A stretch of DNA of 61,748 nucleotides, the filler included, from Globobulimina sp. (Eukaryota): the NCBI GenBank assembly GCA_003354225.1. It is 16 parts of 16 records of this genome, joined end to end, with 100 filler letters (N's around TTAATTAATTAA, not from the genome) between each part and the next. Parts side by side here need not be neighbours in the genome. Positions count along the whole stretch, not along the records: positions 30,941 to 34,705 come from PIVH01002135.1; 15 more parts are not named here. One strand, written 5' to 3'. This document shows, one piece after another, positions 3,770-57,986 of this stretch. A program made the position numbers and the translations under genes. The notes under the pieces were generated by a model. That model was not told the origin of the DNA, did no database searches, and saw only the letters and a program-made list of their open reading frames with translations. The stretch's first letter is position 1. Every line of letters starts with the position of its first letter.

Positions 3770-3869
3770 NNNNNNNNNNNNNNNNNNNNNNNNNNNNNNN
3801 NNNNNNNNNNNNNTTAATTAATTAANNNNNNNNNNNNNNNNNNNNNNNNNNNNNNNNNNNNNNNNNNNN
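3770..3869. other. Artificial 100-bp contig linker (six-frame stop). Also at 7638, 11506, 15373, 19240, 23107, 26974, 30841, 34706, 38571, 42436, 46299, 50162, 54025 and 57887
   Basis: N44-TTAATTAATTAA-N44 repeated identically 15 times; genes are cut at the linkers. Confidence 0.99.
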
Positions 3870-7637: not shown

Positions 7638-8013
7638 NNNNNNNNNNNNNNNNNNNNNNNNNNNNNNNNNNNNNNNNNNNNTTAATTAATTAANNNNNNN
7701 NNNNNNNNNNNNNNNNNNNNNNNNNNNNNNNNNNNNNACTTGTGAAGCATTCTAAAAAAGATGTATTATAATAATTATAATGGTTTGTAGTTATATATAA
7801 GCACTGAACGATATATCCCATTGGATAACCCCCACATTTGTATACATATCGATCAATATAAAGTTTGCATTAACAGATTAACTTTGCAAACCCAATGCAA
7901 ACCCAATATTAAATCATATACAAAATATCGACTAGGTGTAGTTTTCTATTAAAATTAAACGCATCGTTAAAGCAAGTCTCTGAAGCGATCGGATTTGTTA
8001 AATATCTCAGACC

Positions 8014-11505: not shown

Positions 11506-11605
11506 NNNNNNNNNNNNNNNNNNNNNNNNNNNNNNNNNNNNNNNNNNNNTTAATTAATTAANNNNNNNNNNNNNNNNNNNNNNNNNNNNNNNNNNNNNNN
11601 NNNNN

Positions 11606-13828
11606 TATAATGCTGAGCCTTGTGGCACACCAATTGGTTGTGCGACCCAGTTCGACTCTGCTTTCTTTGCTATTACTTTCGTGAATCGAGTCTGTATAAA
11701 CGATGCTAAAACGTTTAATATATTTCCAGTTATTTTATTTTTTATTAGTTTATAAAGCAGTCCATTGTGCCATACGCTGTCATATGCTTTCGAGAAGTCA
11801 GTGAATACCACATCCGTATCACTGACCATATCAAGGGATGTTTGTACATCTGAAATAAAAGATGTTAACACGTCATCGCAGCATCTATTTATCTGAAATC
11901 CGCATTGGTAATTGTCGAATATTCTATTTTCAACACAAAAATGCTGAAGTCTATTTGCTAAGACCTTTTCAAAAACTCTCCCTAAGCACGACGAGATAGC
12001 AATGGGACGGTAGTTTTTGGGGTTGCTGTGGTCTTTGTGTGGTTTGGGGATTGGCAGTATATGGGCGAAATTCCAATATCCCGGGAATACGCCCTTCTTC
12101 ATGCATTTATTAAATAGCGGCACTAGACATTGGATGAGAGCTTCCCCGCCATATTTAATCATTTGATTATGAATTCTGTCGGGACCATACGCTTTGTGGG
12201 TATCGAGCCGTTTAATGACATTTCTTATTTCATAATTTAATATTGGATCGTTTAATAACTGATAATTATTTGGGTCAATTTGTATATGCGTATTTATTTG
12301 GGATGGATACTCTGAATTAGTATTTGAATTTTGTTTATTTTTATCATCTGTTATTTTATGGGAGTCAGTATTAATTAAATTTGGATTTATTCGATTATTA
12401 CGAAGCAAAGTGGGGACAATGGAATCAATGTGATCATGCCATGCATTATGCGTAGGGTTAGATGGAGGTTTAGGAGGTCTTGTCATTGCTTCATGGAGGG
12501 CTTTTGCCTGCAATTTCGGATCAATTATATTGAAATCATTTTTATAGTTTAATGGTGGAATATTGTTGGTGTCAATGTGGTTAGTTTTATTGCTGGATAT
12601 GGTCCGCCAGAATCTGCGGCCATAGTCCTTGCACGATTGAATATAGCTATTTATTTTATCATTATATTTGGATTTCGCAATGGAGATCGCTTTGTATTTT
12701 CGAGATTGACACCGGTTCAATTTGGTCTTCTCTTTTTTGTATCTATGGAAGTTGTGGAAGTCAGTTTTCCTCCTTTTGGCGTTTCGTTTTATTCTTTGTA
12801 TGCGCCTTCGTAATCTTTTACATTTTCTTTTTAGTTTTTTAATCGTTTTATTCCACCACGGTTTGTGCCCTCTATAGTAGCATTTGTATCCTATTGTTTG
12901 CTCCGCAGTGAACAAAATCAAATATGTTAATTGCTCAGTTTGTATATTTGGGTCCTTATCAAACGTTGTTTCATTTATTGTGTTTTCAAGCGTTTCTGTG
13001 TAGTTCCTCCACTTGTTACTGTTTGAGAGGTTCCACGTTTTTTTCCCTTCATCAAATCCAAAAACATGCGAAACCTCAAAGGTAGTTAATATTGGAATAT
13101 GGTCGGAACAATTTCTATCATATAAAGCATGGAGTATATTCCATTTTTTATATTGCAAATTATCAGAAATTAATGTTAAGTCTATACAGGATTTGGTGTC
13201 ATACGATTTATGGACATGCGTATGAAGGATTATTTTTATTTAGTATTTGCATATTAATAAAGTGTAATCCATCTATAAAGTTGTTGGATTCCGCTGTTGA
13301 TCTGTTACTGCCCCAGATCTCATTTGGAATATTGAAATCGCCCGCAATTATATTACGATCAACAGTGAGTGGGTAGTCAAATAATTGGTCAATGTTCGGG
13401 TTCCTTGGGCAGTTATAAAGGGAATGGACACCAATATTCAAATCGCCGCTATGTAGGATGATACTGGTAATATGGCAATTTTTTGTCCTATCATCTCTGT
13501 TGTAATTTGGTGGCGAATTTATCGGCGTTACATTCAATGTTTTCCTATATAGGATTGCCGTTTCTGTGCCAGAATGATGAACTTTATATTGGGGAAAGAA
13601 CTGGATTGGAAATTGCAGGGCGTGTATCACGTCGTTTTTGTCAATGTATTGCTTTTGTTTCGGCGTTATTGCATATCTCAACGTCGCACTCCACTCCTGA
13701 AGTAGTAGGAAGTCCACTCGTTTTGAAAGTAGTATTTGATTAATTCTGCGGCATTTTGACTCCTGTGACATATTCGAGGGACTAATAACACCGCTAATAT
13801 TATATTGTAAAATATTATATCTAACCAT
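11606..13828 (-). pseudogene. LINE ORF2 (endonuclease plus reverse transcriptase) with a 1-nt frameshift near 13210
   Basis: The NNPSYACP* frame must shift by one base to reach KSYDTKSCIDLTLIS...SDHIPI within the APE domain. Confidence 0.8.
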
Positions 13829-19339: not shown

Positions 19340-22300
19340 AGTTCCCGGCTGTGCCCAAGAATAATTTGAAAATATTTGACATTTCAAACAATAATTTTGG
19401 TGGAGAGTTGCAGTTTTTTGATCAAGTTCGCGATGATACATTTTATCCAAACTTCTCCTGGGTTTGCAATTTAACGGTGTTTTACATAAATGACAATAAG
19501 TTCACTGGCCGCATACCGGTCAACTTAAATGGCTGTGATCAGCTATCCACGGTATCAATGCACGAAAATAGGTTCAATGGCAGGTTGCCGGAATTCCCGT
19601 TTAATACAAACATCACCAATATAACCTCATTAACTTTGCATAACAACAAAATCGAAGACAGTCATTTAGAACAGTGGCTGCATGCGCTATTTATCAACAA
19701 TCCGTACCTCGGATTTTTATCTATTTATGGCAACAAAATCTCGGGCAAATTATCCGAGACATCCGCGCCGAGGCTACACACCTTCCTTGCTCACGATTGT
19801 CGCATTTCAGGTATATATCATTTTCGATTTAATTTGTTTTCCAAGGCATGTCTCAGAAACAACATTGTATACAGGAACTGTGCCAGACCAATTTATAAAC
19901 AATTCATTTTTAGTCAATATAACATTATTCGATAACCGTTTAAGTTGCACATTGCCGGAGCATATAATCATTGATGATAACATTCATTATTCTAATACCA
20001 CTGTCATGTTTTTGTTAGGGAATCAGTTCTCCACCAAAGGTAACAATTTGCCGACATATATCAACCCTGATTTCGCCAAAGCAATTAATCTATACATAGA
20101 CGCATATGAAAATATATTAGAAAATATCACATTGTACTTCGCATTGTGTGGCTGTATCCCATTTATTGTGCTATATCGCTGTAGAAAATTGTATTTAAAA
20201 CACTGTACAGCTGATTATGACGAACACACGGGATTCGATTGGCTGTTTGCTGCCCCTTTGCAACGGCCGGCGGAACCGTTTAGTTTCAGATCGTGGAACT
20301 CGAAGAAAAAAGCTTTTGCTAAAACATGTACAGACGGCGGCTCCGCGTACACTGAATTTAAGAGTCACCAACCTGGCGATGTCACATCCGGGGCCTCCGG
20401 GGAAGATTATCAATTTTTTAAAGAAATTCAATTCTCATTGAATGCTATCAGCCATTGGCTCGTCATAGTGTTCATATTGGTGCTAACTGCGATTTATGGA
20501 CTCAATTCGACATATTATCAATGCGCAAACGTGTATTTACATTTTAGTTTGGCGTACATGGAAGGAAGCAGGTTCCCGCAAATGTTGCTTGCAGTTTTGT
20601 TTGTGAGTGGAAACGCATTCATTTTAATGTTTATATTCTTAGCATATAGACGTGAAAAAAAAGACGCGTTACAAAAGAGCTATGGTAAAAGCAGCAGCAA
20701 GCAACGCAGTCATAGGCCCATTGGCCATGTACAGAGCAAAAAAAAGCGTAAACGAGCACACCGACATCATAAGAAAAGCAAAAAACAATTACCAACGGCG
20801 GGTCCAACGCCAATGTGTACGCCGGTAACGCCAAACATTGCAATAACTCCAAATTCAACAATGACCACTCCAAACATTGCAATAACACCGCAGCGCGGGA
20901 TCACCGTGTTGAAATCGCCCAATTTGCAAACATTTCTAAGCCCACAAAGACAGCGGGCCAAAGGCACAAATTTTATTAGCGAACTATATAAATCGCCATC
21001 CGTTAATGCTGCAGCTGAGCCACCGCCACATGCAGTAAATGTCAACGTCAATCCAGCTGCAAAATATTCCATTGAAACCGTAGAAACTTCGTCCAGTGGT
21101 TATTCTGCACCGTATCCGGCGGGCGTTGACACAACGACTTCGGTGTCGTCATCAGGTTATTCCGCAAGGAAAGATATGATATTGGAGGAGGATTATAACC
21201 CAAAATCAGCGTTTTTTCGTGATACACCAGGCACGAATACATTTTCTGGAATCCAGACGCCGTCGTATATTGTGGACGACCAGAGGAACGTTAACAAGAA
21301 TGAGCCACTGCGTCAATTGGATCATAGTGATAAAGTGTCAATTTTTCGAACGAGTGCACTGGATTTGCGAATGCAGGCGATTTTATTCGATAAGACATCG
21401 GAAAGCACCAAACATGCGCTGCGCATTGAAAAATGTAACTGTTTTTCCGCAGTGATTTATGTTTTTCTATGGTTGTTTACATTGACTACAACGATAACCT
21501 TTTTTGTCACTATCTCGTTGCCGTACGATAATACCTTACAAATGGCGGAATGGACCATTGTGGTCATTCAGTATTCACTGGGCTTTGTGTTGTCAATTTG
21601 TAATATATTCATCGTGCCGAAAATCTCCGATTATATCATTTTTGCGCATATATTGATCAAGTCATTGTGCTGTGGGCCTTGTGGCAAAGATAAGGATAAG
21701 CACAGCAACAGTAAATATTGCAAAAGCTGTAACTGTATATGTATTCCATGCAAATTGTTCTTTAGTACTAATAAATGGAAAAGATTTAACAAATTTGACA
21801 ACCTCCGCACGCCCACCGGCTATAAACAGAAACATATCTTTGATTATAATGATATGGTCGACGATCAACGACAGCAATATTACAAGAAATTAGTCCGAGA
21901 TTTTGAGAAGAAATCTATCGACACACAGTGGCGTATTAAAAAAAAGCCACGCAGTGCTTCTGCCTTTATAACCACATTGCAATCTAAATTCAAAAAGAAC
22001 TCTGACGTTAATATTGCTGGTACCAATGTCGCCGCAGCTGACTATTCATTTAATTATTTCCAAGGCTTCGATCAAACCGTCACTGAAAAGGCCAGAGCTC
22101 AGACACCACCGCCCATTGCCAGCAAGTATTTGGCACCGACTAATAACACAGCGCTTAGTTTGCAACCCACTGATTTGATCATGTCCGCATCCACGCAACG
22201 AAAGGAATCTTCTGGTATTCATTTTGAGCCATATTCTCGCGGCGTGGAAGGCAGAATAATCAAAGAAGACGTGACCGGGTCCGGAGGTTCCAGCGCGGTG

Positions 22301-23106
22301 TACTCCTCTGCTCCGTTACAGAAATCATTGCAAATGAGCAGGAAAAGGAAAATAAAGACTGTGAAGCTCAAGCGTAAGAATAAAGTGTCGTATCATCGAC
22401 GCTCGCACCATTACCAAAAGAAAAAGTATCTGACTTCTTCTTCGTTGTACCAATACAGGTCGATTATAACTGCATTATTGAGGTCGGTGAATTTGATATG
22501 GATCCCCTTTGTGGTGGCGATATTCTTTGAGAACGATTGTGGTGGCGGTTGGAGTCTATTTTGGGATCCATGTCAGTCATTTTATGGTAATAAAGATGTT
22601 TCTGGCTCAGAGTTGACAGTGTTTTTGGATTTGAGTGGCACGCAAACAGTGATTATACGGGAACCGACAATATTCAATTTGACAGATGAAGCTCTGGTGG
22701 AGATCCCATATGGCTCTGTAACAGCAATGTTGACACCGGATTCGATATGCTTTAAAAAGCAAAACTTAGCCGTTAGTGCGCTGACGGAAAGCACAGATTG
22801 TATACGGGCTGTGTTGTCCGCGTGGGCCGACATATTAATTATAAAAATGTGTGTCAATATTGGTGTGTTGCTCGTGTCTGCGTTGACTATCAATTTTGAA
22901 TGGAGCAGAAATAATTTATGGTTGAGAATGAAACCGCACGTCCGGATGGATAAGGAATATGCGTCGATATTATCACATTTAGAGATTGCCATTGTGATAG
23001 GATATATAGCAACGATTATTATACCTATTATTGCTCTGGTCATTATTGTTACTATTTATTTTTATAAAATGCCATTAAAAACGGGGAGGGATTTAAGGAA
23101 ATCTCA
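19340..23106 (+). CDS. LRR-ectodomain multi-pass membrane protein, both ends cut; intron ~19811..19875
   Basis: Plant-type LRRs (FDISNNNFGGEL, INDNKFTGRIP, MHENRFNGRLP, DNRLSCTLP) followed by ~7-8 TM segments with long S/T/P/K-rich loops. Confidence 0.8.
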
Positions 23107-23913
23107 NNNNNNNNNNNNNNNNNNNNNNNNNNNNNNNNNNNNNNNNNNNNTTAATTAATTAANNNNNNNNNNNNNNNNNNNNNNNNNNNNNNNNNNNNNN
23201 NNNNNNTGTAGGTAAAAACAATAATAGGTACACTCAGAAACGGTCACTGTTATATGTGTTAGCATTTGCTTCATTGCTACCAATTGTATTTAGTTCACGT
23301 ATGTATACTATATAATATATATACACTCAAACACACGATCGATACAAAAAATGGATGGATTGTCAATTAAAATGCACTAATGATCAATGCACGTAATTTG
23401 AATTAAATATAAATTCCGCCCACAATTTAATATCACAAATCACACCAAACGCACTCCAACAAATTCAACAACATACAACACTCACAAACACACACTCAGC
23501 CATCACAATGTTACAAATTATATATAATTACAATGTCGCCGAGAAGCCATAACCGACAAAACAAAGACCACACATTGATGCAAATGGTAATAAAAAGCCA
23601 TCAATTTTACACGACCCAAAACCACCATGGATAAACAAGTAAAAAACGACATTGTTTGGTAAAATAAGCAACCATTTATACCTCCACGTTTGACTTAATA
23701 TCGCTAATAAAATTAAAATGACAGAATAAATGTGCATATTATTTGACAATCATCATTTATTTCTATCAGATCTCTGCAAAATTTGCACCGCATTCTTTAA
23801 ATGAATAGTTTTCCAAAATTTATCACAAAACATACATACTAAAAATATTTTAAACAGGAAGCGAAAAGATTGCCATTATTGTTTGCGTTTTGATTGGTTT
23901 ATCATATTCAGCC

Positions 23914-30101: not shown

Positions 30102-30840
30102 TTAAACAATTTGAAATATGAAATGATTTTTAGTGGTATTAACATGATATCGATTCAATTGGGCAATTATCCTTGGAATCAGCATCCGAACAACATTAAA
30201 ATTGTGAGGGATTACATGCAAATTTAACTGCTGTTTATTGATCCTCAAAAAATAATTTTCCAATATATCTGATCTCATCCAATTCATCCAATTTTCGGCC
30301 TCATTGCTTTGTGGAGAGTGTACATTAAACATTCTGATTATATTCAATTGTTTCAGCCATCTGTGACATATATTACTTATTTGTACCAAAAACATATTCC
30401 AAAAATCACTATTTTTAAATTTATTACGCAACAAATTTTCCAATGTAGTCTGAACATATTTAGTTGATTGTTGTTGTAAGATATGCATAGATTTATTGTT
30501 TCTATTGACCATTCTCACATAATTCGTATGGTAAACATGCGGTATTTTGGATACATCCCTTCTCATTTTCGCATCACATTGTAATTCAGCTACTGATTCA
30601 TGCAGTAATCCGGGCATTTTATCGAATGTTTGATTCATTATTCTTGCGTTACAAATAAAATGCAGCCAGCTCATAAATTTTGCGATTTTCACCATATTCA
30701 AATTTCGGCTCATTGCGTTGACTGTGTTCATGCATCCAAAAACTGCGGATACCAAATTCATTGAAAGCTCGTTGCATTTCTCCGATGTTGGCAATAAAAT
30801 GGCGTTTATTGCAGATGAATCTGTGTCAAAATCTTCACGA
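30102..30840 (-). CDS. Hypothetical protein, 5' end cut
   Basis: Frame stays open for over 230 codons up to the contig end; no recognisable motif. Confidence 0.45.
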
Positions 30841-31195
30841 NNNNNNNNNNNNNNNNNNNNNNNNNNNNNNNNNNNNNNNNNNNNTTAATTAATTAANNNN
30901 NNNNNNNNNNNNNNNNNNNNNNNNNNNNNNNNNNNNNNNNTCACCACCAACACTTCCTCCAGGTTGTTGCACTCTTTGAGACGACTCTTGTCCACTGTCC
31001 CGTTCTGCACGTAGTTTTGTTTCAGGTTCGGGTCGATCTGGCTCACGAGTCGACTGTGGTTCGAAGACGGCTTGATCATCTCTTCTGAGATTTGGGAACT
31101 CTCCAGTTTGTTGGAGTGTTTAGGACTGGCGTAGTTACCTGCCTTACTCGATATTTGGCTGTGTTGCTGGCTGTTCTGCCGGTTTCCACGGTTAT

Positions 31196-33503
31196 TGCTG
31201 GGATATTGCAGTAAAAAAATGTGGCGGGTTATTGTCAGATTTATGGACAACGATTTCAGAAACATGCGGTCAAATTATTCGTAACCGATCCAAGACAGAT
31301 TGGTATTGGTTTAAAACCTGCCTTCTTACCTCGACGATTTGGTATAGAAGATCTCCGAAAGACGGCACTTATTTATATTATCAATTATTAAAATGGGTAG
31401 AAAATGAGGCAAATAGTCAATTAAATAAATTGGAACACGCATTGAGTAATACAACAAATGAAAATAAAAATGATTGGGACGACTTAATAACATTCAACGT
31501 ACAAACAGAATATAACAGTAATCAAATAAGACAAGATGTGATACCAAACGGTATTGTTAGCTCTTATTCCCATTCTCAATTAGTCGATGCCTCATATCAT
31601 ACATTTAATGCTGCTGCTTTTTATGTACAATCAATATTTATCTCGGTTGGTATTAGCAGCTCAAATGTGTGATCCCCAATTTCAAGAATCTGTGCAACAC
31701 ATTTTTGCCCAAATGATAAAGAACAAAAGCGTTCAATATAAAAAAGGACCGGTCAAATTATTGGAAAGAGCAAAGAATAAAGCTGGCACAGATTATATTC
31801 ACCAAACATATCCGACAAGTTCGTGTGTTATTGATTTTAATCGATGTGCTTTAATATTTAACACCGTGCCAACATTGTTACAAGCATTGCAATTATTCAT
31901 TAAGGCAGTACACACTAACTCGGCCGGGACAATTATTGGCATTGTTCGTTGTAAAAATGGTTTTGTTGAGTATGCCAAGCAAGCATGTTATGCCGACATC
32001 AAATTAAATGTTATTATTTGCGGCACCTATAACATTATCGGAGAGGTGCAATTCTTGCTGCAACAGATGAAATTATTTAAAGATGTTGCTCATAATTTGT
32101 ATGGTGTCCAACGACAACAAGAAAGAATGGATAATTCGGTGAGTAAAATATTGCCGATGCTGTTAGATCAGGATAAATCATTAGCAATTGCTGGCACTGT
32201 GGGGAATATTAAATCCGTGTTGCAACTGATGGTTTGGTATAATTCCTCCGGTGACGAGATATTGAAAGCAGATGGTGGTGGTCGTAATGTCTTGTATAGG
32301 ATCTGTAGAAATAATAATGTTGATTTATTACTATTTTTAAAATCAGTGTTGACTAAGAAACAATTCTTTGATGGGGTATTATTAGAATGCGATATTGATT
32401 CCAGTTGTATTGAGACATCTGTCTGGTTTTCTCGGTCGCAGATTTTAAAAAACGTATTTAATGTTCCTCAGATTCGCGCAAAATACATGAAAGATGAATA
32501 TATGTTTCGTATATTGGATCATATGTTTGTTGGCAATGAAAAGGCGGCATTTATTCAATATTTATTACAAGAATTAAATATAACAACAAAGAAAGTGCAG
32601 GAGATGATGACATATCAATTTCCATCCAATAAAATTAAACCATTACCAGCTCATCAATGGGATAAATATACAATAGGTACACTAGTGGTGTCTAAAAATG
32701 GGAAAAAAGCGGCTGTTGAAAGGTTAATCAAAGTGATTGGTGTTGCTGTATTTGTTAAAAACGTTTTTTATGCGAATGGAAGTGAGAATTTAAATATGTT
32801 GGAATGTGCTATAAAATATGATAGAACAACAATCATCGAATATATACTGTCATTCGAGCAAGTAAGACAGAGATATAATACGGGTGCGGGTGCTGGTGCT
32901 GAGAATGATAAGTTATTGTTTAGATTAACATGTTGCTTGTTTGGTTATGCTAAACCTGCAATGATTAAATTCATATTAGAGAAATTAAAAATATCTGATA
33001 ATACTGTCCAAAGATTGGTGGATAAATACCAGTATCCTACACCAAAAAAGAAATATAAACAAGATATACCGGCACGTGAAATACATCAAGAATTCCAACA
33101 ATATCATTTGTTAAATGTTATTGGAAAGGCAGTATGTTCAAATTCGTTGGACGCATTGCAACGATTAGTTGAGATTATTGGTGATAATACGTTTAATGAT
33201 GTTGTGTTCAGAAAAGATGGTTGTAACAAAAATGCGGTGCAATATGCAGTGCAGAAAAATAAATTGGATATATTGATGTTTATGATCAATAGAACGGAGA
33301 TTAAAGCTACGATTATGAATGATGTGGATGCGTTTTATAGCATTATTTTGCAATTAAATGACAATTTCAATTTGGAAATGGCGAAATATATTGTAAATGA
33401 ATTGGTTATATCACAGAAAGGAATGTTGGATAAATTAAAAACGTTAAGCAATGGTGTTGACATTTCCTCAATATTGAGTGTAGTAAAGGCCACTGATAAA
33501 TAA
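31196..33503 (+). CDS. RelA/SpoT-synthetase-like nucleotidyltransferase fused to ankyrin-like repeats; N-terminal part in another frame (1-nt insertion ~31626)
   Basis: GPVKLLERAKNK..DY, VIDFNRCALIF, KNGF...YADIKLNV, IIGEVQ, AHNLY. Ankyrin-like units DGGGRNVLYRICRNNNVDLL, NMLECAIKYDRTTIIEYIL and DGCNKNAVQYAVQKNKLDIL. Confidence 0.72.
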
Positions 33504-33573
33504 GCTTTTTGTTGTTTGTTCTTATTTTTGTCAGTTGTAAGTAACTACATCTCCTTGCACACCATTTTCAATA

Positions 33574-34479
33574 ATGGCTATGAAATCTGAGAATACTAAC
33601 GATGCTAAAGAGGAAGAGAAGAATAATATCATTAAAAGAATAAATGTGTTGTTACTATCTGATATCCATTGCAATAAAGCAAATATTATGAAAGTAAAAG
33701 ATTATATTTCTGCATCAAATATTAAAGTGCATCATTTATGGATGCCAGGTGATTTTTTGAATGTAAGTACAGCAGAGAACGAAGACGAAAAAACAGTTAA
33801 AGACTCAGAAATCGAATTGATTGATTTATTATCTGCTGCGAGATCAATACACGACAAACCAGTAATAATACCCGGTAATCATGATCCAATTACATTATTT
33901 CAAACAGATAATGACAAATATTTTAATTTTGCAAAATGTATAAATATTCATAAACAATTGTATGCTGTGGATGGTGAAACTAATTTATTTATGATTGGTT
34001 TTGGTGGTTCGGTGCCAGCGATTTGTGAATCAACACCAATTTGGTCTGGATATCCATTTAAAAATGATGCAGAATTAGGCAAAGAATTCATACCGTTTAT
34101 TGAGAATAATATGAAGAGTTCTGAGAGTGGTAAAAATGTGGTATTATTTACGCATAATGGACCAACAAAAAGTAGTACAACAATGGATTGGAGAAAACAT
34201 GATGTTGCTAAAATAATAGAATCAGGAAGTGATTCAGTAAGGGATGTGATATTAAATAAGGATCTAAGAGATAGAATAATATGCAACATTCATGGCCATA
34301 CGCATGCGGGTGTCGGTCAAGCGCGTATTGGCCATGTACCAATCATTAATCCAGGCAGTTTATGTGGAAAAATTGATGGTGGACATAATTGTAATACTTT
34401 TGCGTTAATGGAATTGGTACAGTTTAAAGACGAAACATGGATGTGTGATAATGTTCGTTTTAAATCATTAACCCAATAA
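33574..34479 (+). CDS. Calcineurin-like metallophosphoesterase
   Basis: SDIH, GDF, GNHD, THNGP, HGHTH and INPGSL. Confidence 0.9.
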   Translation: MAMKSENTNDAKEEEKNNIIKRINVLLLSDIHCNKANIMKVKDYISASNIKVHHLWMPGDFLNVSTAENEDEKTVKDSEIELIDLLSAARSIHDKPVIIPGNHDPITLFQTDNDKYFNFAKCINIHKQLYAVDGETNLFMIGFGGSVPAICESTPIWSGYPFKNDAELGKEFIPFIENNMKSSESGKNVVLFTHNGPTKSSTTMDWRKHDVAKIIESGSDSVRDVILNKDLRDRIICNIHGHTHAGVGQARIGHVPIINPGSLCGKIDGGHNCNTFALMELVQFKDETWMCDNVRFKSLTQ

Positions 34480-34805
34480 ATCTAACATTAATTTCAATAT
34501 GAATACTAGAATACTCTATGTACGTTTAATATATACTTTATAATCGTTTTAGTTGCAAGAATACTGGAATCAGTTTCTATGGCCTCCTGTATAGGAGCTA
34601 CGGCAGATCTGACCCCAGAGACAAACCCTAATATTCGTTGGCAAAACACGTGGTAAACACTAGACTGTCTCAAACGACCGGGAAAATGTACTTTCCAAAC
34701 TTCCCNNNNNNNNNNNNNNNNNNNNNNNNNNNNNNNNNNNNNNNNNNNNTTAATTAATTAANNNNNNNNNNNNNNNNNNNNNNNNNNNNNNNNNNNNNNN
34801 NNNNN

Positions 34806-41163: not shown

Positions 41164-42435
41164 ATGGGAGCAAATGTATTTGATGTAATCGATATTATTG
41201 GAATTATTTTAATGTTAATCGGTGTGTTGCTGTTAACTCCGATTTTATTATATTCATTATACAACTTTTATTCTATAAATATTCGATCGACAGATCTCAT
41301 TAAATATCGAAATAAAAGATTAGTATATTATATGAATGCATTAGCCATACTCTCATTTTGTACGGAAAGAATATTTACTATTTTCACGCAAGTATTACGC
41401 ATTCCCGATGGTGCAATATCACAATCTCTCTGTTTCATTGCTGTTTATTTATTTGTCTTTGGTTTTTATACGTTATTTCTTATTAAAACATGGTTAAGTT
41501 ATTATTCACGTGAATATCATCGTAAATCAGTAGAATTAGCATGGTGCAAAGATGTGGACCCAACAACTTCGAAAAATGTCTCAAATGAATGGTTTATAAA
41601 ATACAAACATAAATTAGGCAATGATAGGTTTTTAATAAAAATTGCTGTTTTCCCGTTTTTATTTTTTATTTTGTTGGAAATAATTCTAGATATTATGATT
41701 GAGGGCTCGCTCATTGATGATGTAATTACTTTATCGTATGCCTCATTTATATTTATTGTTTCATTCGTATTATATTACAAAACTCTTAATTTTAATGATA
41801 TTTATCATATTAAACAAGAAATGCAATATCAAACAATCATATTATTATTTATTGTATTTATTAGCATATTAAGTGTACTCATTCAGATCATTCGATATCA
41901 TGATATAGATATTATTTGTATAAAATCAACAAATGAATGTGATATACATCGAGTTGAATGGCTACTTTCTTCATTCATTGGCTATATTACATTATTTTCA
42001 ATATCATTAATATCGACTGCGTTTCCTGTGTATTTATATAAGAAAAATATAAATACCGTACAAATGAGCCAATGCATCGACGAAACGAGCACTGAGAAAC
42101 ATCATTTCTTAGATGGAATGTTCAAAATTATATCACATGAATCTGGATTTAAAGCATTTATGGTTCATTTAATTAAAGAATATTCGACTGAAAACATCTT
42201 ATTTATTCTTGAATTGGTTCAAATAAAATCATCATTCCAATTCAAACATAATAATGTATTAAAATTACCAAAATCTATTGATTTAAATCTATTATCAATG
42301 CCAGACGCTAAAAATAAAAAAGTAATATCTGTTGAAAAAATAACAGTTAATTTTAATATGCTACCAATGGAATTTAAGAGACCAAAAACGTTAACACCGA
42401 AAATTGTTTTAGAGGAACCATATTCAAATAATAAT
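41164..42435 (+). CDS. 7TM-RGS protein, 3' end cut
   Basis: About 7 TM segments with IKYRN and D.YHIKQE motifs, followed by an RGS box (IISHESGFKAFMVHLIKEYSTENILFILEL). Confidence 0.85.
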
Positions 42436-42535
42436 NNNNNNNNNNNNNNNNNNNNNNNNNNNNNNNNNNNNNNNNNNNNTTAATTAATTAANNNNNNNNN
42501 NNNNNNNNNNNNNNNNNNNNNNNNNNNNNNNNNNN

Positions 42536-42654: not shown

Positions 42655-44897
42655 ACGGGGAGGACATAGAACGGCAATTAAACAGTTAATAGTGGCTGGA
42701 GATAAAATCTATTCATATGACGATTGCTGCAAGTTATTGGAACGGGATCCATTTGGAAATGTATTGCGCGAATTTGAATTGAATAATAAATGGATTCGAG
42801 CAATCGTAGCCATCCCAAATAGTAATCAATTATGGATGGTGCATCACGACGGCGTCTACGTTTGGCAAAATGTTAAGTTTTTTTTTTCTTTACAGTTTTT
42901 TTTAACTTTAATTTATAATGATTTTATTTTGACTTTGATGTAAATAGTATTCACTCATTGAGATTCTCCACGGCCACGAAGCGCCATTAACGAGCATCTC
43001 ACAGCCATGGAATGATCAGATATGGACAGGCGACAAAAATGGGGTAATTTGCCTGTGGGACATGAAGACGTTCAGTCTTTTACGCAGAGTCAAATATGGA
43101 TCGCTGCCAATCACTGATTTTACGCCTATTAACAACGAGTATATGTTGGTTGCAAATGACAGTCTCGTCGAAGGCCTCTTGATTGCCGCACTGAATAAAG
43201 ATGGAAATTTAATAAAGTTTTTATTCCCTTTGCCAGATTCGGACACAAATCAGAATAATAAGCAATGTTTTTATTCCTCTCCGCAATCATTGACTTCTCG
43301 CAATCGCAAAGCGATGGCATTTACATTATATTCGGCGACGTCCATCGCAGCCATCGAAGCAAAGAAATTGCAGATTGGCACTGAGAAATATGTGTTGTCG
43401 CAAATGGTAATGGACCACAAATACGGTCGCTTATGGCTCGGATTTAAGAATCCACTCTGTTTACAATCATATAATTTGCATTCTGGCTCGCTTTGTGAGT
43501 CGAAGAAAAGGCAAAATAAAATAGAAATTACTTCAAATAATTGCGTTAAACTGGATGTCGAATCAGAATCAGATTCAGATAATAACCGCAATAAAGGCGT
43601 GGATGCGGCGCAATCAATGGTATTAACACCGAGTTCAATGGACATCCAACGACAGCGATTAATGCAATTTGCAGAAACTTTGAATGCAGAGACACTGAAA
43701 TTGAATGCAGACAAAACTGAAATAAAAAAACAAAAATCCATTTTACAAAAGGAACTGAGAGATATTCAGCAAAGAACTAAGAAATTTGAAGTGATGATTT
43801 CTGAGCAAAAATGTAAAATGAATGAAAAGAAAGATTATGAAAATCGGATCGGCAAATTACAAGAAAGTTTAATAAATTCACGCGTTGAACTCACAAAATA
43901 TAAAGAAAGCTGCAACGACCAATTAAAGCAAATTCGTTCCATTCAGCACAACAAAGAAATGGTTGAATATCAACTAAAACAAACACTGAATCAAGTCAAT
44001 GAAATGAAAAAATGCAAAGTTAAACGCGGCGCGGATTTGAAAAAAGTGAATGAGTTAATTTGTGACAATAACGCAAAAGAAATGAAATATGTCTCTGAAA
44101 TGCAGGAAAAAACAAGAAAACTGATTGAAAGCGAAGAATTATTCAATAATATCAAATTAGAAAACGACAAATTCAAAAATATAAATAGTGAGTTAGTAAA
44201 ACAAGTGGATGGATTATTGAATATTTCGGTGGACAGAAAAGAGACAATTTCGACATTACAAAGAGAGCAACGCCAAAATGCAGAGCATAGCCAACAATGC
44301 AACGAGTTTATGTTATCATTATTTGATCATTGCCATCGATGCAATGACAATAATAAACCAACTCCGATGCGCGAATTACAGTGTTTTGCACAGCAAACAT
44401 CGGCAATCTTGTCCTGGTTCGAAAGGCATGAAAACAAAATGTGTTCGAAAATATTACTTCATAATGAAACATTGAACCAATACGAAAACAAATGCCACAA
44501 ATTGCAAAATGAAAAGGAAAAACTGGAAAATGACAATAATTTGTTAGCGAGCAATGGCGATCAAACCATCTCTGACAACAAAGAAATGGGCAAACAATTG
44601 AAGGATTTACAAAATGCATTTTCGAGATTATTACACAAATTCAATCAAAACTCACTTCAAACCAACCAAATAAAACAAGAATTAAATGAGAAATGTCAAG
44701 AATGTGAAGAGATTCATTTGGATTATGTTCGAATGAAAATGCAACATTCCGAATTTAAGCAAAAATATGAAAGATTACAAGCACAACAAATACAAATAAA
44801 ACAACCACAGCCACAACAACAAGAAAATGAAAATGAAAATGATGAAAAAAGTATATTAATGCAATTAAATCAATCCATTGCAAACGATCCGCAATAA
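42536..44897 (+). CDS. WD40-repeat plus long coiled-coil protein; intron 42872..42947; its 5' end lies at the other end of the contig (46141..46298)
   Basis: GGYSDGIIRAWK, GHRTAIKQL and GHEAPLTSI..IWTGDKNGVICLWD, then a heptad-rich E/K/Q region. Confidence 0.82.
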
Positions 44898-54690: not shown

Positions 54691-54908
54691 TTTGAAATTA
54701 GAAAATGTTTTTCAAACATTGGTAAAATAGAAAAAGGTTAGAAAAATATTAGAATTTGAAAAAACTTTGAAAATGTATGAAAATGCTTTGTAAATGTTTG
54801 AAAACGGTTATAATTTGAAAACAGGAAACCTACTTTGAAAACATAGAAAAAGTTTGAAAAATATTAGAAAAACGTTTGAAAATATTTTTCAAATCAGAAT
54901 TTGAAAAC
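54691..54908. repeat. Degenerate TTTGAAAA/TAGAAAA minisatellite-like tract
   Basis: More than 10 imperfect copies of (T)TTGAAAA at roughly 10-13 bp spacing. Confidence 0.7.
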
Positions 54909-56479
54909 ACTGCAGCTTTGACCTCTTCTCTCCGCATATTTTTCAACAAAACATCTTTATATTTAAGAAATTGCTCATTTTCAATTTGTATGATCCAGTC
55001 AACAACATCCGAATATCCCCATGCTACATATCCCAATCTCTTCTTATATTTATTCCATTTTCTTTTCAATGCATCATAATCATTTAATTTTTGTTTAAAA
55101 ACACTTTGTTCGGCTTTTAATTGCTTTATAACTCGTTGTTGTCTCTTATTCTGTTCCTTCAATGCATAAATTTCTTGCTTTTCAGAATGCTTTGTTTCCT
55201 CTACATTTTTATTTTTTTTGTTTTTCTGCATCCAAAAATAAGGCACAATGTGCTTAATATCCATTGAATAATGCGATTGTTCGTTGATTAAATGCATTTT
55301 GCTCTGAATTATCAAAGGTTGCCCAAAAATACATTGTTTGGTTTTACTTTTCTTAAATTGTCGCTGTGCAATGTTATAAACCCAAATATCGTATGTTCCC
55401 GAACTACAAAGTAATATAATTCCTTCTTCTTTCACCAAAATATTCTGATAATTCGAATTCCTAAAATTCCTATTCTTGCTGAACGGTGCTGGAGTTTTTA
55501 CAGTTAATTTTGAAAAATTATTCGTCGTTAAATCTAACTCAAAAATGTCTGGATCATCAAATAATAGCAACATTTTCTTGTCAGCAACATAAATCATAGA
55601 ATAATCAGATTTCAACGTATTGCAAAATCCTTCAACTTTTTGAAGTATATTTTGGTGCTGATCAAATATAAAATGCTCAGATGTTGGTCCATTGGTAAAT
55701 AAATGCAATACATCCTGAACAAGGAGTATCTTACAAATATTATGGCCGCTATCAAATGAGGATAATAACTGCATGCTGCGGTTTGTTACATTAAGTTTGA
55801 AAATGCCATATTTTGTAATCGCTGCCATTTTATCAAGTAAATACGCGTTAGTTAACGTCCGAGTTTGTGAATTAATATCGCTCCGAGTGACCCCACAAGA
55901 TACTTTTGCATAATACAATGCAGCTTGTTCTGCCTTGTTTTGTAAATCCTGTGAATAATCTTTGAACGAATTCTTTGACTCAATGTATGTTCCATAGATA
56001 AATACTTCCGATGTTTCTGGATTAGAACAGATATTCAATGGATTCAGCAACATATATTTACTGGAATCTATTTGGAATTCAGTCCATTTTGAATCACCAC
56101 CATTAAAAATCGATGAAGTTGGATTATGCGTAGTCGATAACTCTGCTTTATTGATATTGGGAAGTGAGCAAGAATTACTTCGATCATATTTAGTTAGGTC
56201 ATACTCACAAACTGGAGATATATGGTTCTGAGGGATATACATAAAGCGTTCTTGGTTGAGTTGGAACATCGAACCTAATTTCATAGATTGAGGACATTTT
56301 TGTAACATATCCCAAGCTGCATTTGTTTGATGCACACTATGTCCTCTTCCCCTTCCTCGCCCTCTCCCTCTTTCTCTATTGTTGCCATACCAGTTGCCTC
56401 TGCCTCTGGACCCTCTTCCTCTAACATTCCGTTTATTTCTTCCATATCCTCTACCTCTAAAATCACGAGCATAGGACAT
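54830..56479 (-). CDS. RGG-rich N-terminus, beta-propeller-like core, coiled coil and truncated SAM-like tail
   Basis: RGRGYGR...RGRGRGRGRG; beta-strand repeats; WGYSDVVDWIIQIE.....Y...L. Confidence 0.65.
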   Translation of the reverse strand: MSYARDFRGRGYGRNKRNVRGRGSRGRGNWYGNNRERGRGRGRGRGHSVHQTNAAWDMLQKCPQSMKLGSMFQLNQERFMYIPQNHISPVCEYDLTKYDRSNSCSLPNINKAELSTTHNPTSSIFNGGDSKWTEFQIDSSKYMLLNPLNICSNPETSEVFIYGTYIESKNSFKDYSQDLQNKAEQAALYYAKVSCGVTRSDINSQTRTLTNAYLLDKMAAITKYGIFKLNVTNRSMQLLSSFDSGHNICKILLVQDVLHLFTNGPTSEHFIFDQHQNILQKVEGFCNTLKSDYSMIYVADKKMLLLFDDPDIFELDLTTNNFSKLTVKTPAPFSKNRNFRNSNYQNILVKEEGIILLCSSGTYDIWVYNIAQRQFKKSKTKQCIFGQPLIIQSKMHLINEQSHYSMDIKHIVPYFWMQKNKKNKNVEETKHSEKQEIYALKEQNKRQQRVIKQLKAEQSVFKQKLNDYDALKRKWNKYKKRLGYVAWGYSDVVDWIIQIENEQFLKYKDVLLKNMRREEVKAAVFSNSDLKNIFKRFSNIFQTFSMFSK

Positions 56480-57886: not shown

Positions 57887-57986
57887 NNNNNNNNNNNNNN
57901 NNNNNNNNNNNNNNNNNNNNNNNNNNNNNNTTAATTAATTAANNNNNNNNNNNNNNNNNNNNNNNNNNNNNNNNNNNNNNNNNNNN

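Follow-up and report, generated by a model that had tools for sequence, protein, structure and literature searches.

Enzymes of the RelA/SpoT homologue (RSH) group play central parts in the stress signalling of bacteria, in their toxin-antitoxin systems and in their defence against phages. Among eukaryotes, RSHs are established in plastids only; fungi, Dictyostelium and diatoms have, in addition, a small number of synthetase-only genes that are unexplained. Divergent synthetase-only RSHs (divRel) from Aspergillus, Gibberella, Dictyostelium and two diatoms, with no known hydrolase, are described in excerpts of Atkinson et al. 2011 (PMC3153485), and RelA_SpoT is named among NLR effector domains reported earlier in the available part of a fungal NLR survey (10.1101/2022.03.16.484565). 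The present analysis concerns a stretch of 61,748 nucleotides from Globobulimina sp. (GCA_003354225.1), hereafter the window, and within it an open reading frame (ORF) coding for a protein with a central RSH synthetase-like domain followed by ankyrin repeats, beside a metallophosphoesterase gene. We favour, with moderate confidence, the reading that this protein represents a large foraminiferal family in which a very divergent RSH-fold domain would act as a pyrophosphokinase gated or targeted by ankyrin repeats, the phosphoesterase being unrelated.

As far as the excerpts describe them, divRel and the fungal NLR proteins are alike to the present family in being non-plastid and eukaryotic and in having an RSH synthetase without a hydrolase domain; the fungal NLRs are further alike in that their RelA_SpoT domain is fused to repeat-containing receptors. 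The family is set apart by those same descriptions, since divRel and the fungal NLR domains were found by RSH/PF04607 profiles, to which the foraminiferal family is invisible. In contrast to both groups, it displays the order coiled coil, ankyrin, RSH-like domain, ankyrin, with no NACHT, occurs in Foraminifera and comprises hundreds of clusters. A non-plastid eukaryotic RSH is less novel than a preliminary description of this DNA implied, synthetase-only non-plastid RSHs being on record since 2011 in the portion available of PMC3153485. Judged by its modelled fold, the family is a new, very divergent eukaryotic RSH-like variant.

The ORF 31587..33503 on the plus strand encodes 638 amino acids (aa), and residue numbers (K57, D83 and so on) are positions in this ORF. 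Its two main parts are as follows.

31626..32153, plus strand: RSH synthetase-like nucleotidyltransferase-fold domain, from predicted fold; core at 31719-32141, residues 45-185
32154..33503, plus strand: C-terminal ankyrin solenoid (residues 190-638) and stop codon, from Pfam, AlphaFold2 and Foldseek

The central domain adopts the RSH synthetase fold in its predicted structure. The AlphaFold2 model of residues 1-218, based on a 43-sequence alignment, reached a predicted local distance difference test (pLDDT) value of 87.4 and a predicted template modelling (pTM) score of 0.76, with elements in the order helix, beta1, helix, beta2, helix, beta3, loop, beta4, beta5 and long helix. Foldseek searches of the PDB with this model returned 56 matches at E<=0.001, and 22 of the 22 matches listed were RSH entries (SAS1/RelQ, SAS2/RelP, exported small alarmone synthetase (SAS), Rel, RelA, SpoT and Tas1); CapRel was also among the best structural matches. 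The model thus agrees with the synthetase fold, a mixed central beta-sheet framed by helices and superimposable on the synthetase domains of SAS and Rel, and the RSH/pol-beta fold anticipated in the preliminary description was the best structural match. At the level of the modelled fold, the RSH-synthetase-like assignment is robust. In the ESM Atlas, 12 of 30 matches were to named clusters some of whose members have PF04607 (score 0.90; rank 15 in the other listing), so that language-model features, too, point to such clusters.

Other pol-beta enzymes were found among the structural matches as well, which could speak for another nucleotidyltransferase chemistry, such as nucleotidylation of a protein, RNA or a small molecule. 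These enzymes aligned over about 95-125 residues, however, against 134-160 for RSH, with Z 3-4 units lower. The signature of classical pol-beta enzymes is hG[GS] together with DxD. As read from its sequences, the family is without both and has the RSH-type single Asp plus E-x-Q; only one acidic residue sits on its beta2 (DFN, no DxD), as in RSH and unlike classical pol-beta enzymes. We consider this alternative chemistry very unlikely.

The nearest ESM clusters were 168-198-aa 'hypothetical proteins', mostly labelled Eukaryota (commonest phylum Bacillariophyta) or Bacteria (Bacillota). Phage clusters also occurred among the nearest matches, with PF04607 in 24% of their members. As a lead, stand-alone relatives may exist outside foraminifera.

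The region behind the domain is an ankyrin solenoid, as had been noticed from the sequence. Pfam detected Ank_2 in the ORF (E 6e-7, 30.4 bits against a cut-off of 27.3), and the AlphaFold2 model of residues 190-638 (pLDDT 86.1, pTM 0.83) displayed helix pairs throughout, in agreement with the solenoid of tandem helix-turn-helix repeats of about 33 residues that defines ankyrin proteins. The best Foldseek matches of this part were ankyrin-1, AnkB repeats, DARPins and tankyrase ankyrin repeat clusters (ARCs). Homologues carried the ankyrin families PF12796, PF13606, PF13857, PF00023 and PF13637.

The family is large, and its named members are all foraminiferal. A word-index search with residues 1-220 retrieved 66 proteins of 357-1102 aa with 45-60% identity in the domain, most of them with ankyrin Pfam domains and none with a Pfam domain on the query region. 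Among 1.84 billion cluster representatives, HMMER matched 566 at E<=1e-3, 283 at E<=1e-10 and 60 at E<=1e-30, the 566 family clusters being defined at 50% identity. Pfam showed ankyrin in 24 of 40 distant members, nothing in 13 and weak unrelated matches only in 3. Exact-sequence look-up of 28 members gave Nonionella stella or Bolivina argentea for all 18 that were named, the other 10 being ENA contigs, and two further search matches were named Ammonia sp. Together with the absence of any recognisable plastid RSH architecture, this taxonomic range agrees with the non-plastid nature proposed for the protein beforehand.

Peptide-pattern scans, a weak test with one or two patterns each, covered the genomes of 185,579 prokaryotic species, viral contigs and JGI metagenome contigs and revealed no relative: pattern matches on 1 genome, 46 viral and 104 metagenome stretches included none that tblastn confirmed. 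Open full-text literature on the family (RelA/SpoT with ankyrin, foraminifera with ankyrin or ppGpp) yielded nothing among the titles listed, subscription journals lying outside the scope of that search. Compared with the window, the same 15 proteins were 45-56% identical in the domain and 23-37% in the ankyrin part, figures obtained by differing alignment methods. The resulting picture is one of a conserved enzyme-like core joined to a faster-evolving binding domain. Some paralogues possessed additional domains, namely a calponin-homology (CH) domain in P0154, ZZ, C1 and FYVE fingers in P0202 and a weak MBT repeat in P0153.

Polar residues of the domain were near-invariant across 155 aligned domain sequences that were 30-61% identical to the window. 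The ORF harbors, in this order, the motifs GPVKLLERAKNK, DFNR, KNGF...YADIKLN, GEVQ and AHNLY, whose polar residues were conserved in 150-154 of about 155 sequences. The counts for residues of catalytic type were K57 (153/155), R61 (152/155), K65 (153/154), D83 (154/154), R121 (153/154), K123 (153/154), Y135 (152/155), K139 (154/155), E153 (154/155), Q155 (151/155) and H169 (150/155). R86, N124, D137, N141, Y172 and R176 were also near-invariant. Because the polar motif residues persist at such identities, the motifs are not due to chance.

Residues were mapped onto RSH through a profile-profile comparison (hhalign) of a 45-sequence RSH profile (16 SAS included) with the 155-sequence family profile. 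Sources of the RSH profile were E. coli RelA and SpoT, RelA fragments, 80 RSH loci and small alarmone synthetases from Bacillota (16). With the full profiles, the top-scoring local alignment was colinear over 132 columns and not significant (score 13.3, E 0.64), and it serves as a basis for residue mapping only, without bearing on homology. In this alignment, G-P-V-K stands opposite G-R-V-K, R61 opposite the motif Ser, K65 opposite Lys and D83 opposite the Asp of D-I-A-G-L-R, while Y135 falls on the G-loop Tyr, E153-x-Q155 on E-I-Q and H169 on His.

For RelP of S. aureus (SaRelP), the available excerpts of PMC5794853 report that Arg78 and Arg112 stack on adenine, that Lys80, Ser84, Lys88 and Arg91 bind phosphates, that Asp107 and Glu174 hold Mg2+, that Tyr151 lies in the G-loop and that His190 contacts the ribose. 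The distance between Glu174 and His190 (16 residues) equals that between E153 and H169 (16), and Lys88-Asp107 (19) compares with K65-D83 (18). DSSP of the model, with strands predicted at 85-91, 116-123, 138-144 and 150-158, placed D83/R86 at beta2, Y135 in the beta3-beta4 loop (between strands 116-123 and 138-144) and E153/Q155 on beta5, while R121-x-K123 ends beta3. By spacing and the non-significant alignment, the family would possess the Mg-binding Asp on beta2 and the Glu of E-x-Q on beta5, as SaRelP (Asp107/Glu174) and FaRel2 (D90, E145, Q147) do, and Y135, from 'YADIK', would be the loop tyrosine. The resemblance to Syn-type motif order put forward at the outset holds as a conserved pattern, with one shift: the equation of 'KNGF' with 'K.NGY' probably lies one element off, and the G-loop Tyr, by the same spacing and alignment, is probably Y135. 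The triphosphate motif that follows beta1 in RSH, R-x-K-x3-S-x3-K-x2-R, reads G-P-x-K-x3-R-x3-K in the family, which keeps both Lys and has Pro for the first Arg (148/155), Arg for Ser (152/155) and Asn/Thr/Ser for the last Arg.

A number of results weigh against an RSH synthetase at this locus. No sequence method connected the domain to PF04607. None of 43 members matched PF04607 even at E<=10, nor did any of 40 distant members in a Pfam scan; ORF residues 1-220 had no Pfam match, ankyrin being the only domain seen in the whole ORF. Searches of the PDB by phmmer and by profiles gave no RSH chain, NCBIfam, PADLOC and PHROGs provided no RSH link for the domain, and hhalign returned probabilities of 0.1-0.2% both with RelA by itself and with a RelA/SpoT profile. 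With trimmed cores, the hhalign score was 10.1 compared with 12.1 +/- 2.0 for 60 column shuffles, 50 of which reached the real score; as the real score is no better than that of shuffles, profile comparison gives no statistical support for homology. The adenine-stacking arginine pair (SaRelP R78/R112; FaRel2 R64/R95) is absent, its places being taken by Pro55 (148/155) and Ser/Ala/Thr88, and 'EIQIRT' reads 'E.QFLL', with 'IRT' replaced by 'FLL', so that donor binding, read from sequence, may differ or be lost. The proposed residue equivalences draw on a non-significant alignment, on spacing and on predicted secondary structure. The window copy, moreover, is truncated at its 5' end or chimeric and is not an intact gene. 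The RSH-like assignment is valid at the level of fold and active-site pattern, not at the level of the sequence family.

The two substituted arginine positions and the lost 'IRT', along with a divergence too great for any RSH profile to detect, would suit a non-catalytic module, no longer a pyrophosphokinase but a nucleotide-binding or structural element in an ankyrin scaffold. Yet about 17 polar residues, the putative Mg ligands D83 and E153 among them, show 97-100% conservation at 30-61% identity, as one expects of active sites and not of relics. The invariant R61 (6 residues after Pro55) and R86 (2 before position 88) lie near the lost arginines and could substitute for them. We regard a non-catalytic module as quite unlikely; the domain is probably active as an enzyme.

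In the favoured reading, an active pyrophosphokinase under ankyrin control, intact copies begin with a coiled coil at the N terminus, followed by a small number of ankyrin repeats, a helical region, the RSH-fold domain and the long C-terminal ankyrin solenoid. The enzyme would be Mg-dependent, with the donor triphosphate held by K57, R61 and K65, Mg2+ by D83 and E153 (with Q155), and the ribose contacted by H169. The acceptor base could stack on Y135 in the beta3-beta4 loop, where a basic patch of R121, K123 and K139 would suit a phosphorylated nucleotide acceptor, and the product may be an alarmone-like nucleotide. The faster-evolving ankyrin solenoid would most likely target or gate the enzyme through protein-protein contacts.

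Compared with RelQ/SAS1 and RelP/SAS2 (PDB 5ded, 5dec, 6fgk, 6ewz, 6ex0), the family domain is only 10-13% identical and has no PF04607 match. Its motifs differ by Pro for the Arg of G-R-x-K, by Arg for Ser, by D-x-x-R for D-x-x-G-x-R and by E-x-Q-F-L-L for E-I-Q-I-R-T. It is also eukaryotic and embedded in an ankyrin protein. Compared with toxSAS enzymes (CapRel 7ztb, 9erv; Tas1 6ox6; FaRel/FaRel2), the partner is an ankyrin solenoid and not a pseudo-Zn-finger, the host is eukaryotic, and no toxin-antitoxin or secretion context occurs here. Excerpts of PMC11782079 describe the donor and acceptor sites of toxSAS, with a larger basic acceptor patch in alarmone synthetases and a small one in the tRNA-targeting FaRel2; in the present family, the basic residues that flank the G-loop Tyr do not vary. 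No associated paper was found for PDB entry 8vx3.

A rival reading is a conflict role, in which the protein would be an immune sensor-effector acting by toxSAS-like pyrophosphorylation of the tRNA CCA end or by ATP depletion through (pp)pApp, the variable ankyrin part restraining it until a foreign or danger-associated protein binds, as the fused C-terminal domain of CapRel does. We deem this unlikely. A broader proposal, which we offer tentatively and with low confidence, is that foraminifera expanded a cryptic RSH-fold pyrophosphokinase with fast-evolving ankyrin repeats into hundreds of paralogues, as cytosolic sensor-effectors released by ligands that would make a (pp)pNpp messenger or toxin or pyrophosphorylate RNA. 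If true, CapRel/toxSAS immunity would have a counterpart among eukaryotes, and a non-photosynthetic protist lineage would have its first signalling system of the alarmone type.

Under the favoured reading of a divergent, ankyrin-associated pyrophosphokinase, the RSH superfamily would extend into Rhizaria with a large, strongly conserved family that existing RSH profiles miss, and structure-based searches can find RSH domains overlooked by sequence censuses. The family would also allow a concrete test of the old question of alarmone-like nucleotides in non-photosynthetic eukaryotes. Its altered donor site hints at a chemistry possibly unlike ppGpp synthesis.

The gene extends beyond the ORF, and the window around it is composite. 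Contigs from four public runs (X1, X2, X6 and X8) were placed on positions 30941-34600, with identities to the window of about 99% for X1 and about 96% for X6 and X8, two runs that may be RNA. The features relevant to the gene model are listed below.

Whole window: 16 pieces of about 3.76 kb in decreasing size order, joined by linkers N44-TTAATTAATTAA-N44 with six-frame stops
30941..31191, no strand assigned: GC-rich stretch of 251 bp, outside the gene
31192..31625, plus strand: upstream coding segment in frame 2, from tblastn; helical region preceding the RSH-like domain in the family
31625..31626, plus strand: frame break, two bases absent from the window, from contigs of three other runs

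The 15 linker sites (3770-3869, 7638-7737, and so on to 57887-57986) are spaced 3868 falling to 3862 nucleotides (nt) apart, and the single contig considered here covers 30941-34705 only. Since the window is made of joined separate contigs, gene order across linkers is meaningless and genes outside 30941-34705 are not neighbours of the ankyrin protein.

The ORF 31587..33503 and its ordered motifs exist as first described; the start of the ORF does not stand. With tblastn, residues 205-343 of the homologue P0001 matched 31196-31624 in frame 2 (45% identity) and residues 342-957 matched 31617-33500 in frame 3, and P0006, P0008 and P0021 showed the same two-frame match. This two-frame match shows that the first 13 codons (MPHIIHLMLLLFM) are read out of frame, with a frame break near 31625 and the gene continuing upstream in another frame. 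Frame 2 is open from 31124, without an ATG. Contigs of X1 (depth 36.2), X6 (14.4) and X8 (4.5) had 'AT' inserted behind 31625, a site without coverage in X2. By hand reading, this insertion restores one frame with F-Y-D-Y-N-Q-Y-L, as in homologues. The 5' truncation and the frame break at 31625 probably reflect assembly or strain defects, and the intact protein is estimated at about 950-980 aa from the X1 contig and P0001 (957 aa).

The truncation coincides with a change of sequence at 31192. Positions 30941-31191 have a GC content of 51%, compared with 33% for the gene, and had zero depth in all four public runs. Contigs of X1, X6 and X8 agree with the window only as far as 31192, beyond which their 5' sequence is different, X1 reaching 637 nt further. 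This 637-nt extension agrees with the 204 N-terminal P0001 residues missing from the window, and the last 30 letters of the divergent 5' sequence, translated by hand in frame, give R-L-P-F-C-D-N-L-L-I, which is family-like at that position. The segment 30941-31191 is probably a chimeric or contaminant join, as judged from composition and contig coverage. An intron ending at 31192 was rejected, the window having 'gg' and not 'ag' there and the 251 bp in front being compositionally foreign. A 126-aa ORF on the minus strand (30885..31265) includes 30941-31191, and a contaminant or chimeric read is possible.

Downstream of the ankyrin protein, the contig carries two further features.

33504..33573, plus strand: intergenic spacer of 70 nt, from sequence
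33574..34479, plus strand: calcineurin-like metallophosphoesterase of 301 aa, from Pfam

The phosphoesterase seen earlier 70 nt downstream on the same strand is present, complete and above Pfam cut-offs (Metallophos_2 PF12850, 37.3 bits against 27, E 3.4e-9; Metallophos PF00149, 36.2 bits against 21.5, E 1.1e-8). Metallophosphoesterases are characterized by the motifs D-x-H, G-D, G-N-H-[DE], H and G-H-x-H, and the translation displays SDIH, PGDF, GNHD, THNG and GHTH. It resembles YfcE/MJ0936-type phosphodiesterases in both Pfam domains and in all metal-binding motifs, and differs from them in its length of 301 aa with insertions. It weakly matched TIGR00040 yfcE (E 1e-5, below cut-off) and MJ0936 in PDB entry 1s3l (E 0.063), a PHROG phage family of metallo-phosphoesterases matched at E 1.5e-8, and the protein fell below the curated cut-off of every specific NCBIfam model.

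Two genes on one strand, 70 nt apart on one assembled contig, could form a module in which the ankyrin-RSH protein makes a messenger and the adjoining phosphoesterase degrades it, as the preliminary description had suggested; nucleotide polyphosphates are indeed hydrolysed by some metallophosphoesterases. A word-index search, however, retrieved only 15 phosphoesterase homologues, against 66 for the RSH-like domain in a like search and 566 clusters by exhaustive HMMER search, so that most paralogues cannot have such a neighbour and a general pairing is unlikely. Nine of the 15 were 52-60% identical (one named Nonionella stella, one from an MMETSP transcriptome), and the rest, at 29-34%, included the sponge Sycon ciliatum and the fungus Neoconidiobolus thromboides. 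The 70-nt spacing is ordinary, as spacings of 19-155 nt occur between unrelated ORFs in other pieces of the window. No contig of the four runs bridges both genes: contigs end at 33533-33549 and start at 33535-33612, those of X1, X6 and X8 ending at 33540-33549 with the next beginning at 33554-33612 and those of X2 abutting at 33533/33535. Adjacency is supported by the window's own contig alone, the one with the unsupported join at 31192. Known alarmone hydrolases, moreover, belong to the HD-domain or Nudix types. Excerpts of PMC3153485 refer to Nudix and SAH. The phosphoesterase is probably an ordinary neighbour, functionally unrelated to the ankyrin protein, and we judge a two-gene module highly improbable.

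Behind the phosphoesterase gene, at least 3 different upstream sequences in contigs of X1 and X2 run into the window at 34546, the depth of X2 rising from 6.7 to 56.5; positions 34546-34705, at the end of the contig, are probably a dispersed repeat. A possible poly(A) site lies at 34567, where one X1 contig stops in a short stretch of A ahead of the adapter.

In the other pieces of the window, the 1158-aa ORF at 19682-23158 (plus strand) and the ORFs 41164-42483, 43062-44897 and 54830-56479 had no Pfam match at E<=1e-4. Reverse transcriptase and endonuclease/exonuclease/phosphatase ORFs at 11554-12486 and 13208-13828 (both minus strand) are typical of a long interspersed nuclear element (LINE)-like retroelement. 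A 219-aa ORF at 30102-30761 (minus strand), on another contig piece, weakly matched the C-terminal part of the protein adenylyltransferase SelO (E 0.0086; 15.3 bits, cut-off 22.8); this ORF may be a fragment.

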